Of a stretch of DNA of 46,383 nt, positions 1 to 34,821 are shown in pieces. The position numbers were made by a program, and so were the translations under genes. The notes beneath the pieces are model-generated. The model had not been told where the DNA came from. It saw only the letters and a program-made list of their open reading frames with translations, and searched no databases. Origin of the DNA: a virus (lineage: Duplodnaviria > Heunggongvirae > Uroviricota > Caudoviricetes); IMG/VR virus record IMGVR_UViG_638341086_000015, positions 1 through 46,383 of that record; one strand, 5' to 3'. Numbering within the stretch: position 1 is the first letter of the stretch; the number at the start of each line of letters is the position of its first letter.

Positions 1-894
1 ATGATAAATAGCATTAATTCTTTTTTTTCCAGCATTCCTCGCAGTATATCAAGTATTACGCGTAACAGTAGCTTCACTGCCTCACAGCACAAAAGCACAC
101 CTAACACGGTAAAAACCAGCTCACCTCTTTCTCCCAGCAACAGTCCTGCCAGTGCAACAACTATTTTTAAGGTAAAAAATTCTTATACGGAATCAGGACT
201 TCAACGTTCCACATCTTATACTCAGTCAAGTATAGAAAAAAACGCTTTACATCGGCCTCTGCCTGATGTGGCTCAGCGTCTGGTGCAGCATCTTGCAGAG
301 CATGGCATTCAACCAGCCCGGAATATGGCTGAACATATTCCTCCGGCACCTAACTGGCCTGCGCCAACGCCGCCAGTACAAAATGAACAATCAAGACCTC
401 TGCCTGATGTGGCTCAGCGTCTGGTGCAGCATCTTGCAGAGCATGGCATTCAACCAGCCCGGAATATGGCTGAACATATTCCTCCGGCACCTAACTGGCC
501 TGCGCCAACGCCGCCAGTACAAAATGAACAATCAAGACCTCTGCCTGATGTGGCTCAGCGTCTGGTGCAGCATCTTGCAGAGCATGGCATTCAACCAGCC
601 CGGAATATGGCTGAACATATTCCTCCGGCACCTAACTGGCCTGCGCCAACGCCGCCGGTACAAAATGAACAATCAAGACCTCTGCCTGATGTGGCTCAGC
701 GTCTGATGCAGCATCTTGCAGAGCATGGCATTCAACCAGCCCGGAATATGGCTGAACATATTCCTCCGGCACCTAACTGGCCTGCGCCAACGCCGCCGGT
801 ACAAAATGAACAATCAAGACCTCTGCCTGATGTGGCTCAGCGTCTGATGCAGCATCTTGCAGAGCATGGCATTAATACATCTAAGCGCTCGTGA
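1..894 (+). CDS. tccP: Type III secreted effector of the TccP/EspFU family (Tir-cytoskeleton coupling protein): N-terminal secretion region followed by 47-aa proline-rich repeats
   Basis: 297-aa ORF; four full and one partial copy of the repeat RPLPDVAQRL(V/M)QHLAEHGIQPARNMAEHIPPAPNWPAPTPPVQNEQS, recalled as the TccP/EspFU repeat. Starts at window position 1, so the promoter is outside the window. Confidence 0.85.
   Translation: MINSINSFFSSIPRSISSITRNSSFTASQHKSTPNTVKTSSPLSPSNSPASATTIFKVKNSYTESGLQRSTSYTQSSIEKNALHRPLPDVAQRLVQHLAEHGIQPARNMAEHIPPAPNWPAPTPPVQNEQSRPLPDVAQRLVQHLAEHGIQPARNMAEHIPPAPNWPAPTPPVQNEQSRPLPDVAQRLVQHLAEHGIQPARNMAEHIPPAPNWPAPTPPVQNEQSRPLPDVAQRLMQHLAEHGIQPARNMAEHIPPAPNWPAPTPPVQNEQSRPLPDVAQRLMQHLAEHGINTSKRS
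253..891 (+). repeat. 141-bp tandem coding repeats (4 full units 253-816, partial fifth unit to the stop)
   Basis: Near-identical 141-nt units visible directly in the DNA; they also generate the artefactual overlapping ORF 266-706. Confidence 0.9.
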
Positions 895-23797: not shown

Positions 23798-24112
23798 TTA
23801 GCATTTTTTTGACCGCGCGTTTCCGGACGTATTCTGTTCTCCTGTCCCTTTATATCGTCGGAATACCCGCCGCTCTTCAAATCCCATTCCCAACTCAGAA
23901 TGTAGTCTGTTGACCGCTTGTTTTATTTCGGTCAGGTTCACCGGTGAAACCGGAGTCCGGCGCGCCTTACGCAAACACTCTGCTCGTTTCTGTGCCGCCA
24001 CTTTTCTTTTCTGGTCATCACTTAGCTGTACCATCACTTTTGCCCATCGTTCAGCTGCTCTCCGGTACAGTCCTTTTTTCTCCAGACATTCTGCCACGTG
24101 ATCATGTAGCAT
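23798..24112 (-). CDS. pchC: PerC-like transcriptional activator (Pch family)
   Basis: 104 aa, MLHDHVAECLEKKGLYRRAAERWA...; recalled as PerC-homologue Pch sequence; GGAGG ribosome-binding site. Paralogue assignment (pchA/B/C) is by linkage to tccP only. Confidence 0.75.
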   Translation of the reverse strand: MLHDHVAECLEKKGLYRRAAERWAKVMVQLSDDQKRKVAAQKRAECLRKARRTPVSPVNLTEIKQAVNRLHSELGMGFEERRVFRRYKGTGEQNTSGNARSKKC

Positions 24113-27214: not shown

Positions 27215-27258
27215 AGCCAGCGTCTTCTTTCAGGTCAGTCGCTGGCTCTTTTTTTATT
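27215..27258 (+). terminator. Second + strand rho-independent terminator-like hairpin
   Basis: AGCCAGCG ... CGCTGGCT followed by CTTTTTTTATT; overlaps the 3' end of the esterase gene. Confidence 0.45.
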
Positions 27259-29106
27259 ATGCTGCCGGTGCATTTATCTCCAGCACCAGACTTTCTATCT
27301 CAACGCCATACGCTGCATTTTTTGTAACATCCGTCAGCGTCAGCNCATTCAGTCCCAGTGTCAGACTGTCTTTTATNACCTGGAATGCCGGGCCAGCCAC
27401 TCCATTCAGTTTCGGAGTAACCGTGGCACTGCCGGCGGTGAACACCAGCTCCAGCGTCTGCCAGTCGTTACCGTAATCGCCGAACTCCCCCAGCTTCGTG
27501 TTTCCGGCTTTCCTGTGATGCATCAGATTCACTCTGCCGTCAGTGGTCTGAGTGAAGTACGACATCAGGAACGGATTACCGGTACCCGTCATCGCCACAC
27601 CATCAGGAACGGGAGCATCCGTATACAGATAAATCCCCAGCCCGAACTGATTGTTGGTCAGTGCGCCTGACAGGCGGAACTTACAGGTCAGTCTGCCGCC
27701 CTGTGTCAGCAGGGTAATTGCGTCATCCACCGGATGCGTCAGGGACCAGGTTTTATTGCTCTGCTTGGTGATCTTAAATACACCATCTGACAACTGAATT
27801 CCGCCATCCTTAATGCTCCAGCCCTGCGCAGCAGCCTCTCCGGCTGCCGGCAGCAGGGAGATTGTGCGAACGGACGTATCTGCAGACGGACCCGATGGCG
27901 TGTTGCCGCCGGGCGAGGGTTTGATTTCCGGTGCCTTACCACTGATGAAGGCGGAGGTGCGCCCGGCTGCGTTCAGAATAGCGGTTGCCAGACGATCCGG
28001 AATAATGCTCCTGCGCGCCCATGAACTGAAATGTGTCGGGCGGTTTGATGATACCTGGTTTCCATTCGTTCTCGATGCCGCACCGTAATATCCTGATGCC
28101 GGAATATCCGGATCTTCTGCCGGCGCGTTAGTGGCGGTATGACGCCGTTACCGTCTGTCATGAAGGGCACAAAATAAACGCCCTCACTCTCCCTGTTTTT
28201 ATACCCGCCGTACACGGTGTCGTACTGGGTAGCGTATGTATTTTTCCAGTAATACGTCGTGTCACCACAAATCCACGGCACATCTGCAGCACTGCCACCA
28301 TGGCACTGCGCGTTAAACACGGAGAGGTCAGCACGAAACTGTGTCAGCATGGCTGTAAACAGCGCAGGTTGCTGTGCGTGGGTGGCGGCGCTCATGTCAA
28401 ACTCTCCCTGCATCCAGCACACCGCCAGCAACACATTTTTCGGGTTCTTCTGTAATGCAGCTTTAGTGCGCGCAATCAGGTCCTGATATAACGGTTTACC
28501 CACACCCCAGCGTGCCGAATCCTGGCTGGCCCCCGTGTCCGCACTGAATGTCCCCTCAGCGCCCTGGGTGAATGCAGAACCACCACGACAGCATGGTACC
28601 AGCAGGATCCCCGCGTTATTCGGGATATACGGAAGCAGTTTTTTGGCAATATGTAAGCCCTGGCCGACACAGCCGTACTGCCCTTTGCTCAGGTCTGCCT
28701 TCGGATGATTCAGCGTACTCATATCCTGCACATCATGCAGGCAGTGGTCAGCCGGAATGATGTCGTTATACGTACAACTCTCTCCACCCGGAGTTACCGT
28801 GCTGCGGCGCGCCAGCTGTTTAATGCGCGGATCCGGAGCATCGTAAGAATCCGGTAACGGAAGCCCTTCACCGTAGGCCATGCCGTTGGACTGTCCGGCA
28901 AGCACAACCACGTAGAACCAGTCCGGCTCAGATGAAGGGCCGACCTGTGGCTCTCCTTCAATAGCCACCGCCTGCATCAGTGTGTACGGCGTAATGGCAA
29001 CCGGTCCGCCGTATGGCTGCCAGCCCTCTTTCAGTTTGTGTGTCAGCTTTTCCGCAAGGTCTGACGGCGACGCCGCCCTGACAACATCATAGTGTTTAAA
29101 TGCCAT
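27257..29106 (-). pseudogene. nanS-p: nanS-p-like sialate O-acetylesterase gene (DUF1737 N-terminus, SGNH/SASA esterase domain, C-terminal lectin-like domain), apparently frameshifted
   Basis: Three overlapping frames cover one ~616-codon span: ORF 27973-29106 (GQSN motif) runs into an Arg-rich out-of-frame tail after ...FMTDGNGV; a second frame continues from about 28130 through ORF 27257-27793 to the stop. Two n bases (about 27345, 27377) lie in the 3' part. Confidence 0.65.
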
Positions 29107-29551
29107 GAATCCTCCCGGCCGGGATAATATTGTGAGTAAAATGAGGAGCGGGCTGAAGTCCGGAAGTTACAGGACAATGGCAGAAGAGAGACAACAGCCC
29201 GCAATACGAAAAAGGCCGCGCTATTGCGCAGAGTGATTACTGTCGGATATTATTCGCCAGCTGAAATATTACTTCACGTTTTGTTGTTTATTCCTTGCCG
29301 CCCGCGTCTCCCTGCGCGGGCTTTTTTTGTCCATAAGAAAGCCCCTCCGGAGAGGGGCTGGAGAGTGGCGCTATGTGCCATTGCATGGTGCCGGGTGCCT
29401 CCCGGTGAATTCAGTACCAGCACCTGAATCCGCGATTATCCCATATACCTACTCGCTGATTGCCCCTCCGCACAGGGGGATTCACCATGCCAGTTTCTTT
29501 TAACAAACTCCCCGCAAACCAGACAACAGTCAACCGCCTGAATTGTGAGAC

Positions 29552-29585
29552 ATTTAAAAAAAAGGCCCGCAAAAGCGAGCCAGGG
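29552..29585 (-). terminator. Rho-independent terminator downstream of the tRNA cluster
   Basis: - strand GGCUCGC-UUUU-GCGGGCC hairpin followed by UUUUUUUU. Confidence 0.55.
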
Positions 29586-29595
29586 AAAATAAGTG

Positions 29596-29672
29596 TGGCG
29601 CGTTGTACTGGATTCGAACCAGTGACCGATTGCTTAGAAGGCAATTGCTCTGTCCGGCTGAGCTAACAACGC
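29596..29672 (-). tRNA. argO: tRNA-Arg (anticodon UCU)
   Basis: Manual cloverleaf on reverse complement: 7-bp acceptor stem GCGTTGT/ACAACGC, D-arm GCTC..GAGC, anticodon loop CTTCTAA, T-arm ACTGG-TTCGAAT-CCAGT, 3' CCA. Confidence 0.85.
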
Positions 29673-29685
29673 AGGATACAGATAA

Positions 29686-29762
29686 TGGACCGCCTTCGGG
29701 GACCCGAACTCCGCGCAACCAGCTTCGAAAGCTGGCGCTCTTTCCTGATGAGCTAATGGCGG
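29686..29762 (-). tRNA. argN: tRNA-Arg (anticodon UCG)
   Basis: Manual fold: anticodon stem CCAGC/GCTGG with loop TTTCGAA, 3' CCA; one mismatch each in acceptor and T stems. Confidence 0.65.
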
Positions 29763-29769
29763 TATGTGA

Positions 29770-29845
29770 TGGTGGCCCTTGCTGGATTTGAACCAGCGAC
29801 CTGGCGATTATGAGTCGCTCGCTCTCACCACTGAGCTAAAGGGCC
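29770..29845 (-). tRNA. ileZ: tRNA with CAU anticodon (Ile2/Met type, ileZ-like)
   Basis: Manual fold: acceptor GGCCCTT/AAGGGCC, D-arm GCTC-AGTGGTGA-GAGC, anticodon loop CTCATAA, T-arm GCTGG-TTCAAAT-CCAGC, 3' CCA. Confidence 0.8.
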
Positions 29846-29873: not shown

Positions 29874-30587
29874 TCAATAATCAAGCCCTTGCCTGGATAC
29901 ATATCTGTCTGGCGGGAAGCCATAATAGCGGTGAAATACAGAAATAAAGTAGGACCAGCTTGAATAACCGCATTTTTCTGCTACAGCCTGTCCATATCCA
30001 TGCCGGGAACATAACATATTCACAGCAACACGCATCCGCTCTTCCAGCAACAAGCGACTGAACATGTGCCCTTCATTTTTCAGTTTTATCTTTAACAAAC
30101 TCTCACTCATATGCAGGCGTAACGCAATCGCACCAAGCGTCCAGCTTGCTGATATATCTGTCTGAATTATCGCCCTGACTTTGGCACTTATACTGGATAA
30201 ACATCCACTTAAAAATAATAATATCCGTTCATCTGATTCAAACAGCGACAGGCATGCCATCATAAGAAACATATCCGTGGTATCTCCGGAAAATCTCTGG
30301 CTGGTAATTAAAGCCTCAGCCAACGCAGGGTTGTTGGGTTCCAGTGACAGATAAAGCGGAACGTCAGTCAGATGAGTTCTTGTCAGCTTATGCTGAATTT
30401 CCAGATATTGACTTACTATGGAATGGTTTATATCGAAAATTTTAACTTTGCCATAATGCATAAGGAAAAGCGCCCTGATGCATTTGGTGGCCAGAACGAC
30501 TGAGCCGGGCTTAAGTGACAACGTATCCTTTTCAAGAAAAATATTAATTGGGGAGCAAACCATGATAACTGAACAGACAACAACCAT
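29874..30587 (-). CDS. AraC/XylS-family transcriptional regulator (prophage-borne PatE/Psr-like regulator)
   Basis: 237 aa; C-terminal paired HTH typical of AraC family (…YGQAVAEKCGYSSWSYFISVFHRYYGFPP); AT-rich gene between Q and the tRNAs. Confidence 0.75.
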   Translation of the reverse strand: MVVVCSVIMVCSPINIFLEKDTLSLKPGSVVLATKCIRALFLMHYGKVKIFDINHSIVSQYLEIQHKLTRTHLTDVPLYLSLEPNNPALAEALITSQRFSGDTTDMFLMMACLSLFESDERILLFLSGCLSSISAKVRAIIQTDISASWTLGAIALRLHMSESLLKIKLKNEGHMFSRLLLEERMRVAVNMLCSRHGYGQAVAEKCGYSSWSYFISVFHRYYGFPPDRYVSRQGLDY

Positions 30588-30724
30588 TATAATTTTACTT
30601 TCATTAGCAATTGGTTAGTTCAATTATAGCCCCAAAAGGTAAATTATCATCAACACATAAGCAAAGGACTGACAGGTGCCGCTAACACCCACCAGCCGCC
30701 CATTTACCACAAATAAAAAAGCCT

Positions 30725-30922
30725 TCAGGACTGAAGGCGTCTGTAACAACCGCACTGATAGTCTGCCAGACCCGCCATAACAAGCTGGGTCAGTATTAAC
30801 TGGCAGCGTTCGCGTGAAAGGTAAGTATTCTGCGCAATCTCCCCGACTGTCGCCGGTTCGGTGACGCTTAATTCATCAAACACAACTCTGGCGGTTTCTG
30901 TCATATCCTGCTGTTTCAGCAT
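30725..30922 (-). CDS. Small 65-aa protein, possible winged-helix DNA-binding regulator (PapI/FaeA-like pattern)
   Basis: TVGEIAQNTYLSRERCQLILTQLVMAGLADYQ resembles small winged-helix regulators; weak call. Confidence 0.35.
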   Translation of the reverse strand: MLKQQDMTETARVVFDELSVTEPATVGEIAQNTYLSRERCQLILTQLVMAGLADYQCGCYRRLQS

Positions 30923-31043
30923 GTCTTTTTACCCTTTCCGGTTAACGTGACACACCAATAACTCTTGCCGAAAAAGCCAGCAAGCTGAAAGACCTGTATT
31001 AATAACTACCAGCACATTTAACGCACTGCGCTACTTTGCGGGC

Positions 31044-31068
31044 ACAAAAAACCCGCTCAGAGGCGGGG
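31044..31068 (-). terminator. Rho-independent terminator after the CPBP protease gene
   Basis: CCCGCCTCTGAGCGGG followed by TTTTTTGTG on the - strand. Confidence 0.55.
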
Positions 31069-31208
31069 TCAAGCTATGCGGCGAAATAACCACTCTTAAC
31101 AGCATACCTGATTTTTTACGTACGTAAATGCTTTGCCGTGCATATTTTTCATGCAAATGTCACGTCCTGCTATTTTTCAGTCTTATAAATTTAAAACCAT
31201 AGAAAAAA

Positions 31209-32027
31209 TCAATTATGTTTTAAAAATGGATAGGTAAAGAATAACAAGTGACACAGATTCAAACCAAAATGGAAAAGGGTGGCAACCCACAAACGCCCAC
31301 TCCACATCCATGACAATCCATACACAACACCAGATAACGTGGCAAATAATACAAGTAAAGCACCACCTGAATAGTGATAAAAACCAAACAACAAAGCCGC
31401 CACAATTAATGCAACCAATGGAGACGTTACTTCTGATAGCCGTGATTGAATATACCCTCTAAATAATGATTCCTCTGCCAGAGACACAAAAAACAAATTA
31501 GCCAATATAAACTCTGGCAACCACTCAGGAAAATGAATCTCTGGCTTTAATCCACCAAAAAAAACAGCCAAAAACAGGATAAGAGGAACAGAGAGCGACA
31601 GAGCCCCCCACTTCCACAAAGACACTTCTGATTTTACTTCTTTTTTAAACAAAGAAGATGTACACAGGACTAACAAAAATGGCACCAGCGCTTTATCAAA
31701 ATTAAAATACATTGTATAGGGAGTACTTTGAGGGCCAACAGTAACAGAATTTAGCACTACAGGATTGTGAAACCCTGGCCATAGATGGAAAGATAATGCT
31801 ATGGCTGATAAAACTATGCCAACTTCATATATAGATTTAGCCCAGGCGTTATATTTCCAGTTGAACTTCAAAATAATAAAAAAAACGATTGTAGCAACAA
31901 AAAATAACACCGACCAATCAATAATATCATTAAGCACAGCCAGGACAACAGACACCGTCAACAATGAAAAAGCCACTACCTTATGCCAACTGAGAGTTGA
32001 CAGTGACAGTACTAACACAATCCACAT
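31209..32027 (-). CDS. CPBP-family intramembrane metalloprotease (CAAX protease / Abi-domain protein)
   Basis: Polytopic membrane protein with the three CPBP motifs: EExxxR (LAEESLFRGYIQ), FxxxH (FGFYHYSGG), HxxxN (HFGLNL). Strong AAGGAG ribosome-binding site before ATG 32027. Low GC. Confidence 0.75.
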   Translation of the reverse strand: MWIVLVLSLSTLSWHKVVAFSLLTVSVVLAVLNDIIDWSVLFFVATIVFFIILKFNWKYNAWAKSIYEVGIVLSAIALSFHLWPGFHNPVVLNSVTVGPQSTPYTMYFNFDKALVPFLLVLCTSSLFKKEVKSEVSLWKWGALSLSVPLILFLAVFFGGLKPEIHFPEWLPEFILANLFFVSLAEESLFRGYIQSRLSEVTSPLVALIVAALLFGFYHYSGGALLVLFATLSGVVYGLSWMWSGRLWVATLFHFGLNLCHLLFFTYPFLKHN

Positions 32028-32178
32028 AAGCACTCCTTTTATTTAATGATGAAGATTGATTATCAATATTTTCAATTCACCAGGCAACATTTTATCTACC
32101 TTCCACAATACATGACCATCAAAAAATAAACATGTTAATTATAAACACAGAAAACATAACCCTCATCACTATATATCC

Positions 32179-32550
32179 CTACCGCATATCCATATCTAAC
32201 CGGACATTCAGAGCCATAAGCATTCCTTCAATAATACCTTCCGCTTTATAAAGCCTTTTACCAATAAGCCCATCAGAACATCTATGCTTACGTGCAAGAG
32301 CCATAAATGTCATTCCACCTACGTAATAATCCACCAACAAATCGTGCAAATACTGATTATTCTTGTTTAATCGTGCCATACAACCACAAATTATCATGGC
32401 GTCATCATCAGAACACTGAGGACGTGATTTCACTTTAGTCGGGATTAATCCTTTAAAACCAGCAGCTATCGAGGGCCATGTTACATCTTCATGATTATTT
32501 GCTGCCCATGCCCCCCATCGCTCAAGAACCATCTGGATATCACGCGCCAT
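32179..32550 (-). CDS. Q: Late-gene antiterminator Q (QuuD / phage 82-type)
   Basis: [25 protein letters not shown]..., near-identical to recalled DLP12 QuuD; AGGTGG before ATG 32550 (track start 32559 is GTG). Confidence 0.85.
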
Positions 32551-32911
32551 CGTTACCACCTCTGATTTCGTAAATCTTCACGCCCAGCCGTCCACCTGGC
32601 ACAGGCTGACCGCGCACAATATTGATTTCATCAAACTGCTCGTCATCAATGAGCACTTCCGCATGCGTCAGCGCATCCAGCGGTGCTTTCAGAATGTTGT
32701 CCAGGTCACGGCGGCGCTTATCCGGTGGTTCTGCAATAATTTTTATTGCCAGCCGTCCGGACAGGCTTAATTTCAGCCGCTGCTGGCGAACAATAAGCGC
32801 CACAGCCCGGCGATAACGCTCACCGGCTTTTGATACAAAATATGTGCTGCCACGACGTCGCCAGTAGGTGTTCACCGTCGGCGGGTAAGGCAAAACAAAC
32901 TCTATACGCAT
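32540..32911 (-). CDS. rusA: RusA-type Holliday junction resolvase
   Basis: 123 aa; PxxNxYW N-terminus, conserved DxDN ([10 protein letters not shown]), C-terminal GGRL. Confidence 0.85.
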
Positions 32912-32923
32912 CAGTAACCTCTT

Positions 32924-33973
32924 TTACCCGAGCACGCCGGTTGCAAAAGCGTGATCAAGAAAACGAAAAATTAAATCAACCTGGGAACCATGCTTTTCTT
33001 CGAACGCCAGCGGATCCGCATGAAGCTCGTTGTGATGCTCCCGACACAGCGGTAGCGTGAAAATATCGTGGGATTTTGTTCCCATTCCACCCTGACCATG
33101 ACCAATCAGATGATGAGGATCGTCCGCTGGCTTACCACAACACGCACACGGCTGTGTCTTTACCCAGCGTGTGTATTTCTCATTTACCCAGAGGCGACGT
33201 TTAGGTCGTTTCATGAAGGATTCCGGAGACTCCGGATCAACGGCAATGCTGACCACCGTCTTTTCCTGTGGTGGGTTCTGTTGCTGGTGGGTGTGAGGCG
33301 GTAGCGCAATATTTTTTGTGCGCTGCTTCAGTATGCTGGTGGCGGTCTGTTCTCCCGGTATGATGTCGCTTTCACGGTATACGGAGCGGATTTTTTCCGC
33401 CGGTAATCCCAGAGAACGACGCGATACTGCCTCAGGTAATGCGTCCACCACCTGATTGCAGACTGCCCACCAGGATAATTCAGCCAGCGATAATTCCCGT
33501 TCCTGTATGCCATTCATTGCGTGGCGGATGACGTCAATCATCCATGCTGACAGGTTTTGTTGAGCAAGTTGCTCAAGTGATTCGGATGTCTGGTCGCGCA
33601 GCTGGTTGTCGCAGTGCCAGCACAACACCATCGCGCCGGTACCGTAACGATGTATGACAGTTTCGCTGTGATGATAATCACCATGAGGCTACTGGCAGGA
33701 TTTAACGTGACGTAATAACCAGTCAGACAGTGCACCAGCGCCACCAGCAGCACGAATCACACGCTCATTGCTGAAAAATGGCAGTAATGATTTATCTTCC
33801 GCCAGCGGCTGGCGAACGGCAGGAACGACCCCGGACGGCAGATTACGCATGCTTTTCGGTTCAGACTCCACCAGCACCCTGCCGCCATGAAATACCCGCA
33901 TGGATTCACGGCCTGGCTTAACGATAACCAGACCGAGTTCCGGTACCAGAACAGGTCGAAGTAATACCCGCAC
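32924..33973 (-). pseudogene. ydfU-like (DUF968) gene interrupted by one in-frame amber (TAG) codon at about 33689-33691
   Basis: ORFs 33689-33973 and 32924-33631 are in the same frame, separated by a single TAG plus 19 sense codons; combined length 349 codons; C-terminal Cys/His-rich region (CACCGKP..HHLIGHGQGG..CREHHNELH). Confidence 0.55.
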
Positions 33974-34325: not shown

Positions 34326-34350
34326 AAAAAACAAAACCCGCCGAAGCGGG
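34326..34350 (-). terminator. Rho-independent terminator at the 3' end of the hok transcript
   Basis: - strand CCCGCTTCGGCGGG followed by TTTTGTTTTTT. Confidence 0.6.
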
Positions 34351-34420
34351 TTAAGTGCGGGTGCGTTGAGGATGCCTGATTCATCAGAGGTGGCGAGGGA
34401 TTTCTCCCCCGCCGGGTCTC

Positions 34421-34576
34421 TTACTCCTCAGGTTCGTAAGCTGTGAAGACAGCGACCTCCGTCTGGCCGGTTCGGACTCGTACCTCGCAGAGGTCTTTCC
34501 TCGTTACCAGTGCCGTCACTATGACGGTTAAACAGATGACGATCAGGGCGATTAACATCGCCTTTTGCTGCTTCAT
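34421..34576 (-). CDS. hok: Hok/Gef-family type I toxin (51 aa, single transmembrane helix)
   Basis: MKQQKAMLIALIVICLTVIVTALVTRKDLCEVRVRTGQTEVAVFTAYEPEE, near-identical in pattern to HokC/Gef. Confidence 0.85.
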   Translation of the reverse strand: MKQQKAMLIALIVICLTVIVTALVTRKDLCEVRVRTGQTEVAVFTAYEPEE

Positions 34577-34633
34577 AGCCTGCTTCTCCTTGCCTTTCGG
34601 CACGTAAGAGGCTAACCTACGTTTGTGAAGCAT
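34421..34633 (-). CDS. mok: Mok-like modulator frame (same frame as hok, N-terminally extended)
   Basis: 70-aa ORF co-terminal with hok, the arrangement recalled for chromosomal mokC/hokC. Confidence 0.6.
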   Translation of the reverse strand: MLHKRRLASYVPKGKEKQAMKQQKAMLIALIVICLTVIVTALVTRKDLCEVRVRTGQTEVAVFTAYEPEE

Positions 34634-34821
34634 AGATTGGGCCTCAGATTAATGTTAAGCGTCTTGCAGGACGCGTAATGTTAACTGGGGCTTTTCTCTG
34701 TCTGCCTTACGGTGGCATGCCCGAGGCAGACAGCCTCAAGCACCCGCAGCAATTCTACTTAACTCTCGCTTTACCGCAAACCGTTTTTACCCGATATGGG
34801 AATTCCCATATCGTAATGAAT

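Follow-up and report, generated by a model that had tools for sequence, protein, structure and literature searches.

In IMG/VR virus record IMGVR_UViG_638341086_000015, three genes are found on the minus strand between an antiterminator gene (Q) and a group of phage tRNA genes. The order is Q antiterminator, CPBP-family intramembrane protease, 65-aa helix-turn-helix (HTH) protein, AraC regulator and tRNA-Ile2/Arg/Arg. The whole stretch of 46,383 nt is referred to as the window, and all coordinates are given in window numbering unless another record is named. The locus (29874-32178) raises the question whether its three genes form one functional module, a question raised in a preliminary description of the sequence, or whether they are separate pieces of cargo.

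The explanation favored here, which is considered highly probable, is that the region is a cargo ("moron") zone around the late promoter of a lambdoid prophage of the Sp4/CP-933M type from enterohemorrhagic Escherichia coli (EHEC), and that the three genes are independent passengers and not one system. This explanation was built on the observed gene identities, protein motifs, fold, distribution and conservation of a promoter-terminator cassette. The function of the AraC regulator, a protein of the Psr type, was taken from the literature, and promoter activity, the substrate of the protease and the function of the HTH protein were inferred.

Arrangement and assortment of the three genes

All three open reading frames (ORFs) were located on the minus strand exactly where the preliminary description had placed them, with a Q gene (PF06530) upstream and the tRNAs (29845-29596) downstream (Table 1). 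GC content is 0.402 over 29874-32178 versus 0.516 for the whole window. Low GC had been ascribed to all three genes; this holds for CPBP (0.38) and AraC (0.42), whereas the HTH gene (0.51) equals the phage average. The same 3-kb stretch was present with a coverage of at least 80% in 534 of 5,426 complete E. coli genomes, so the arrangement is real and inherited and does not consist of chance ORFs.

Combinations of the genes were compared among prophages. CPBP, HTH and AraC occurred together in 12 of 80 IMG/VR loci that carry the Q type of the window, and CPBP and HTH were combined with a methylase gene in 9. Phage phiSTEC1575-Stx2k carries another Q type, small ORFs, HTH, AraC, tRNAs and stx2k, and lacks CPBP. 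In phiP27, Q is followed by a GIY-YIG nuclease, HTH, a DNA methylase, tRNAs and stx2e. The second psr locus of EDL933 contains a DUF1133-type Q, HTH and AraC, and strains 06-00048 and OkiPb01712 have Q, CPBP, HTH or an HTH fragment, and a methylase remnant. Genome counts among the 5,426 E. coli genomes also differ: 573 for CPBP (scored at the nucleotide level, nearly always with 99-100% identity), 926 for AraC and 2,152 for the HTH gene with its 120-nt leader (up to seven copies per genome).

Within the window, terminators of the hairpin-plus-U kind are present after the CPBP region, after the HTH gene and after the tRNAs. Annotations of the O157:H7 strains SS52 (locus L004, 11667-11863) and EDL933 (locus L007, 25674-25870) show a frameshifted HTH gene together with intact CPBP and AraC genes; O111 and the window have an intact HTH gene. 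Because terminators and promoter-like sites separate the genes, their combinations vary from prophage to prophage and the HTH reading frame is broken in O157:H7, CPBP, HTH and AraC are independent passengers and not one functional module. The neighborhood comparison thus spoke against the module that had been considered.

Table 1. Features of the region, listed in the direction of the minus strand
Feature	Position	Strand	Evidence
Q antiterminator, 126 aa, Q21/QuuD family	32179..32559	-	PF06530 E=4.9e-52
Q-to-CPBP spacer, AT-rich, several sigma-70-like matches	32028..32178	-	GC 0.32-0.34
CPBP (Rce1-like) intramembrane glutamic protease	31209..32033	-	PF02517 70.6 bits, E=1.4e-19
Conserved promoter-terminator cassette	31040..31128	-	Conservation across IMG/VR loci
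Leader between predicted tR' and HTH gene, highly conserved	30923..31039	-	Alignment A1
Second hairpin inside leader	30984-30964	-	Terminator/promoter scan
65-aa helix-turn-helix (winged-helix-like) protein, phrog_331	30725..30922	-	Weak winged-HTH family matches
Intrinsic terminator overlapping HTH-gene stop codon	30721..30738	-	Fold -10.5 kcal/mol, z=-3.4
Sigma-70-like promoter match ATGATA-16-TATAAT, 10/12	30623..30650	-	Best match of the region, 36 nt upstream of AraC start
AraC/XylS regulator, 237 aa, Psr family (PsrA/PsrB) by sequence	29874..30587	-	HTH_18 and HTH_AraC above cutoff
Phage tRNAs: ileZ-type tRNA(CAU), argN-type tRNA-Arg(UCG), argO-type tRNA-Arg(UCU)	29596..29845	-	ARAGORN; Rfam tRNA; RefSeq labels tRNA-Ile/Arg/Arg
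Intrinsic terminator after tRNAs	29564..29581	-	Fold -13.8 kcal/mol, z=-3.8

The conserved cassette between CPBP and HTH

A block with the layout TTTACG-16 nt-TATGCT-GTTAAGAGTGGTTATT...CCCGCC-loop-GGCGGG-T6 was found between the CPBP and HTH genes (31128-31046, minus strand). A -35-like hexamer (TTTACG, 31128-31123) is separated by a 16-nt spacer from a -10-like hexamer (TATGCT, 31106-31101); the conserved sequence at 31100-31085 is the predicted initial transcribed region, and a hairpin at 31067-31052 with a T-run after it makes up the terminator. Of the 80 IMG/VR loci, 71 have the cassette downstream of this Q type (72 of 81 sequences if the window is counted). It never adjoins Q, and the gap ranges from 516 to 3,038 bp, with 1,054 bp in the window. 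This gap is occupied by CPBP, an ORF6N/Ant-like protein, an OmpC-like/NmpC-type porin on the opposite strand, a lipoprotein, a small lysine-rich secreted protein or the GIY-YIG nuclease of phiP27, and is a hypervariable slot in prophages with this Q family. The porin variant has the order quuD-nmpC-essD of K-12 DLP12, with the cassette 125 nt before essD (locus L096, 4340-7400). With a DUF1133-type Q, the Q gene is found approximately 95 nt from the same terminator position.

Since the cassette is conserved together with the Q type while the spacer after Q varies, it probably comprises the late promoter pR', the Q-loading site and the terminator tR' of this Q family. CPBP would then be located upstream of pR', and the HTH gene, psr (the AraC gene), the tRNAs and a small RNA (sRNA) gene beyond them would be part of the leader of the late transcript, as is stx. 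The cassette splits the region into two cargo slots. An Rfam scan of the intergenic regions within 29874-32178 returned no family, and a literature search on quuD and essD for experimental support of the predicted promoter yielded nothing relevant. In OkiPb01712 (locus L009, 6573-7120), CPBP is directly followed by a diverged cassette copy that has a terminator of its own; approximately 300 nt of extra sequence and a second terminator come next, and then a truncated HTH gene.

A lambda-like position of the late promoter directly after Q, as anticipated in the preliminary description, would make CPBP the first late gene and reduce the cassette to a terminator with a conserved flank. The textbook Q cassette does have pR' directly after Q (bioRxiv 10.1101/651190), and the 150-bp spacer contains three sigma-70-like matches (32118-32089, 32087-32059 and 32075-32046). 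However, this spacer is not conserved among related prophages such as phiP27 and OkiPb01712 (alignment A2), although Q is 84-96% identical and the cassette is conserved. The cassette is conserved from precisely the -35-like hexamer onward, irrespective of the gene upstream. In the porin and lipoprotein variants the slot gene runs in the opposite direction, and the lysis genes of K-12 DLP12 are immediately preceded by the cassette. A late promoter in the spacer is thus regarded as unlikely, and its more probable place is between CPBP and the HTH gene. The promoter-like sites of the spacer could possibly serve as CPBP's own promoter.

The three passengers and alternative explanations

Assignment of the third gene to the AraC/XylS regulators, as originally proposed, was confirmed with Pfam, in which the C-terminal double HTH domain (residues 155-230) scored above the gathering thresholds (HTH_18, 36.6 bits, cutoff 33.6; HTH_AraC, 35.3 bits, cutoff 26.6). 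The protein corresponds to WP_000261909.1, which O111 11128 and the O157:H7 strains SS52 and EDL933 have annotated at the identical position. O157:H7 genomes contain two places matching the gene with 99.9% and approximately 94% nucleotide identity; one EDL933 copy encodes the identical protein, and the product of the second O157 copy shares 91% identity with it, in agreement with the 90% published for PsrA and PsrB (PMC10877973, PMC8565820). The promoter-like sequence upstream of AraC is kept only in AraC-bearing loci, namely the window, the other EDL933 copy and phiSTEC1575 (alignment A1).

PsrA (z1789) and PsrB (z2104) are AraC/XylS regulators with 90% mutual identity, which occur only in prophages, beside effector loci and Pch regulators (PMC10877973, PMC8565820). 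Psr proteins increase the expression of GadE and YhiF and thereby repress type III secretion, and PsrB binds the gadE and hdeA promoters and improves acid survival (PMC10877973, PMC8565820). They are activators of gadE/yhiF/hdeA and indirect repressors of type III secretion (PMC10877973, PMC8565820). Because the window protein is identical to the EDL933 gene product and 91% identical to the O157 paralogue, it is by sequence a Psr-family regulator (PsrA/PsrB). The identity of about 90% expected within the family was found with EDL933 records that carry no PsrA/PsrB labels, which makes the assignment indirect; a cluster look-up for the AraC protein also returned no PsrA/PsrB names. The genetic setting is of the Psr type, a lambdoid prophage with a type III effector locus and a Pch (PerC-like) regulator. 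The connection of prophage AraC regulators to acid resistance and type III secretion, which the preliminary description had put forward, would therefore apply to this gene, whose product is identical to that of the EDL933 Psr-family gene (PMC10877973, PMC8565820).

Gene order was used for a closer assignment. The sRNA EvrS has been placed between z1789 and the esterase gene z1793 (2025 paper, PMC11774850), so that z1790-92 would be three tRNAs. In the window, AraC is followed by three tRNAs, an sRNA and the esterase, which agrees with z1789, z1790-92, EvrS and z1793; the other O157 psr-type copy is followed by two tRNAs and then TerB and DUF3927 genes. The gene is therefore most probably psrA rather than psrB. 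When CP-933N of the corrected EDL933 assembly (NZ_CP008957.1) was fetched for z1789, no AraC gene was found in it; the matching gene of this assembly is in CP-933M, beside yccA. The original EDL933 assembly may have mixed these two similar prophages.

YdeO was the best NCBIfam match of the AraC protein, over the whole protein and with 104 bits; this is far under the cutoff of 348 bits, and orthology to YdeO was rejected. A link between rare codons and the adjacent tRNAs was likewise rejected, since AUA/AGA/CGA codons account for 4.2% of AraC and 1.8% of CPBP, values that do not stand out. Neither CPBP nor AraC is named in a rumen proteomics study of O26/O111/O145. A third YdeO/PatE/Psr-like AraC lineage (247 aa; identity of 35-39% with Psr as well as with the PatE candidate described below) was observed directly after the cassette, without the 65-aa HTH gene, in IMG/VR loci L050 (5466-6209), L072 (5381-6124) and L091 (6246-6989).

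The CPBP ORF is 274 aa long if read from GTG (32033). The ATG at 32027, which is preceded by AGGAG and gives 272 aa as in RefSeq, is more likely the true start. The PF02517 score (Table 1) is well above the cutoff of 22.4 bits. The family motifs EExxxR, FxxxH and HxxxN/D are represented by E187-E188-S-L-F-R192, F216-G-F-Y-H220 and H255-F-G-L-N259, and were invariant on alignment of 24 homologues, down to 47% identity. The N-terminal half is conserved and family-specific (HxxPGFHN...MYFNFDKALVPF). An AlphaFold2 (AF2) model (predicted local distance difference test score, pLDDT, 94.5; predicted template modeling score, pTM, 0.91) had SpdC (6u0o, probability 0.99) and Rce1 (4cad, 0.84) as its top two Foldseek matches in the PDB, with weak E-values of 0.04-0.09; these are the two CPBP proteins whose structures have been solved. 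A multi-pass Rce1/SpdC-like fold can be predicted with confidence from this model. Profile score, motifs and fold together bear out the original CPBP assignment, and the absence of CPBP motifs on alignment, named in the preliminary description as a refuting result, was not observed.

Every inspected E. coli context of the CPBP gene was a prophage, and no homologue was found by tblastn against 50,697 phage genomes. Proteins of equal length and approximately 50% identity are common in Dickeya, Enterobacter, Photorhabdus, Pantoea, Cedecea and other genera. The three orthologues inspected (Enterobacter, Dickeya and Photorhabdus) are single chromosomal genes amid unrelated housekeeping genes, with no conserved partner, toxin or bacteriocin gene beside them. 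By its sequence relationships, CPBP looks like a chromosomal Enterobacterales gene that was captured by a phage. No paper on this CPBP was found in a literature search.

For the 65-aa protein, a winged-helix nature can be proposed at the clan level only. Weak Pfam matches among 17 members of its family were all to winged-helix domains (DprA_WH in 17 of 17, MarR_2 in 16 of 17, and TrmB likewise in 16-17 of 17). TrmB (PF01978) itself scored 17.8 bits (E=0.003) and thus below its cutoff of 25.6 bits, with a best E-value of 3.3e-4 among the 17 members, and the RefSeq name "TrmB family" rests on weak similarity. PapI/FaeA (PF04703), a match suggested for checking in the preliminary description, was not found at E<=1 with any of the 17. 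An AF2 model of mediocre confidence (pLDDT 68) has 3-4 helices and no predicted wing; its Foldseek matches were all winged-HTH proteins, with weak E-values (E>1), and a profile search of the family against PDB sequences gave chance-level matches only. The family is limited to Enterobacteriaceae prophages and is 77-98% identical throughout. Gene and leader are also found in Stx2a, Stx2d and Stx2e phages, the leader is near-invariant across prophages with three different Q types (alignment A1), and the gene is the first one after tR' in many lambdoid prophages.

A role of CPBP in bacteriocin immunity or abortive infection had been raised in the preliminary description, and was considered here, with toxin immunity included, by analogy to the CPBP/"Abi" proteins of lactic acid bacteria. 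The protein belongs to PF02517, has intact catalytic motifs and is carried on a prophage as the type of gene that is expressed in lysogens; work by Kjos and co-workers from 2010 is said to have found that Abi-family proteins confer self-immunity to some class II bacteriocins. However, the Pfam family name "Abi" is historical and is not evidence. Neither the prophage gene nor the inspected chromosomal orthologues have a bacteriocin, toxin or partner gene adjoining, the PADLOC scan gave no match for CPBP, and there is the lack of homologues in the 50,697 phage genomes. Nothing ties CPBP to abortive infection or bacteriocin immunity, and such a role is quite improbable. Still less probable is that the three genes act as one unit, for instance as a pair of regulators that controls a membrane protease in phage defense or superinfection exclusion; this reading can be given hardly any weight. 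It would account for three adjacent genes on the same strand that stay together in all genomes with this allele set, two of them AT-rich as in many defense islands. Against it, each pair is found apart in other prophages, terminators and the promoter cassette stand between the genes, and O157:H7 carries HTH as a pseudogene beside intact CPBP and AraC genes. PADLOC also gave no meaningful match for AraC or HTH, and the published chromosomal targets of the AraC protein are unrelated to CPBP.

Several points weigh against the cargo-zone explanation with three independent passengers. In the 534 genomes the three genes are always together with 99-100% identity, which fits co-inheritance and is still compatible with co-function; this co-occurrence of the AraC allele and CPBP is the inheritance of one nearly identical prophage segment. 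The hexamers of the predicted pR' agree with the sigma-70 consensus in only 8 of 12 bases; they were not listed by the consensus scan, and no mapped start was found there. No Hfq-bound short RNA was found at the position of the cassette in the searchable Sakai Hfq-CRAC tables (Sp4). The naming as PsrA rather than PsrB follows gene order and no named sequence, and the literature puts psrA in CP-933N (OI-50), whereas the corrected EDL933 assembly has the gene in CP-933M.

With independent passengers around the cassette, the region would work as follows. In the lysogen, psr would be expressed from its own predicted sigma-70-like promoter and activate gadE, yhiF and hdeA, which would increase acid resistance (published Psr work, transferred by identity), and the GadE/YhiF route would lower the type III secretion of the LEE (locus of enterocyte effacement). 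CPBP, in the variable slot between Q and the cassette, would be transcribed from the AT-rich spacer or by read-through of the early-right operon, and would cleave some envelope or membrane substrate. Upon induction, Q-modified RNA polymerase would start from the cassette, override the three terminators and transcribe the HTH gene, psr, the tRNAs and the sRNA gene. The late transcript would continue into nanS-p and the lysis genes, along the route by which stx is transcribed in Stx phages. The HTH protein, encoded by the first gene downstream of tR' and widespread in lambdoid prophages with at least three Q types, is probably a small DNA-binding protein that would be made upon antitermination by Q.

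A more far-reaching reading is speculative and rather improbable as a whole: CPBP would be an active protease that was captured into a previously undescribed slot between Q and the late promoter and processes a host or phage envelope protein in the lysogen, and the cassette RNA would be regulatory. If this were true, envelope processing by CPBP would alter surface properties, susceptibility to phages or colicins, or secretion, and the pR'-tR' cassette would yield an abundant short RNA of approximately 50 nt with a regulatory role, like StxS.

Host prophage and known systems

The window comprises an entire lambdoid prophage of EHEC, of the Sp4/CP-933M type. It contains tail, head, terminase and lysis genes, a NanS-p-type sialate esterase, RusA, DUF968, hok/sok, cI/cro and an integrase, and its segment 23485-44026 (20.5 kb) is 99.7% identical to the yccA/serT prophage of E. 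coli O111:H- 11128. The best full-length matches were to O111, O145, O26 and O121 strains, from which the prophage appears to be of a non-O157 EHEC type. A TccP2/EspF(U)-like effector with five EspF repeats is encoded at the prophage end (1-894, plus strand) and a PerC/Pch-family activator near the lysis genes (23798-24112, minus strand); the O111 11128 copy is annotated with tccP2, espV and PerC.

Further observations were made on the minus strand of the prophage. The sRNA STnc100 gave a strong Rfam match (138 bits) at 29329-29519, between the tRNAs and the esterase gene. This is the same position as that described for EvrS/Esr023, a reported LEE regulator, and a northern probe published for the sRNA EcOnc05 of Sakai Sp4 seems to correspond to approximately 29440-29475 (by eye from the ORF translation). 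The esterase gene (27257-29106) is broken into parts of 377 aa and 178 aa versus 616 aa in O111 11128, the DUF968 gene (32924-33631) is shortened to 235 aa versus 349 aa, and the window contains 8 N bases, two of them within the esterase. These defects point to errors of sequencing or assembly or to recent decay; the CPBP, HTH and AraC genes are unaffected. A hok/sok type I toxin-antitoxin locus (34421-34745) was recognized by an Rfam sok match of 117.5 bits and a Hok-like ORF, and a sub-threshold match to the Hfq-binding RNA isrK (27 bits, cutoff 50) is located beside it (34331-34412).

The locus is largely ordinary, with a known regulator in a known moron site of Shiga-toxin-type E. coli prophages and two uncharacterized passengers. 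Three aspects may be new, if minor: the two-slot layout for this Q family, the intact and fairly common CPBP protease without assigned function, which is present in roughly one in ten complete E. coli genomes, and the third PatE/Psr-like AraC lineage after the cassette. Psr regulators connect prophage content with acid survival and control of type III secretion in EHEC, and the identical psr gene in the yccA/serT prophage of O111, O145, O26 and O121-type strains suggests that results from O157 extend to the main non-O157 EHEC lineages. The proposed placement of the late promoter for the QuuD/Q21-like Q family bears on the prediction of Q-induced cargo, including stx in some phages. The three genes are better studied separately.

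Among known systems, PsrA/PsrB of O157:H7 (Tree et al. 2011 and Yang et al. 2015, via PMC10877973 and PMC8565820) are closest to the AraC regulator, which does not differ in sequence. A C-terminal HTH of the AraC/XylS type, a lambdoid prophage carrying effector and Pch genes, and a position just upstream of the ileZ-argN-argO tRNAs are shared. PatE (z0321, CP-933H) and the YdeO/GadX/AppY-type acid-resistance regulators are of the same family and of similar length, and PatE reportedly binds the same region of the hdeA promoter as PsrB (PMC10877973). However, the window protein is just 37% identical to the product of the sole AraC gene of CP-933H, which was taken to be PatE. CPBP shares its Pfam family and the three motifs with M. 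maripaludis Rce1 (4cad) and S. aureus SpdC (6u0o), at 13-15% identity. SpdC is reported to lack the catalytic residues, whereas all of them are kept in the window protein.

The Q protein (phrog_79, "anti-termination protein Q-like") is a distant homologue of Q21, with E=6.9e-08 against structures 6p18/6jnx (phmmer). As in the Q21 cassette (Yin, Kaelber and Ebright 2019; Shi et al. 2019), a single conserved block combines a promoter-like sequence, an initial transcribed region bearing a GTTA...GTTA direct repeat 10 bp apart, and a terminator. Unlike in Q21, this block is 1,054 bp away from Q and not adjacent to it, and its Q-binding and pause elements are putative. Insertion of cargo downstream of Q/pR' in lambdoid and EHEC prophages, including Sp4, is established (PMC4104026). 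As at the moron site at pR' of lambdoid and Stx prophages (Juhala et al. 2000; Tree et al. 2014, PMC4104026), cargo is found between Q and the lysis genes in the window, with tRNAs and stx or nanS-p farther downstream. DLP12 of K-12 (quuD-nmpC-essD) shares the Q family and the cassette with the window, in which the upstream slot holds CPBP instead of the NmpC porin. In contrast to both, the cargo of the window flanks the predicted pR' cassette on both sides.

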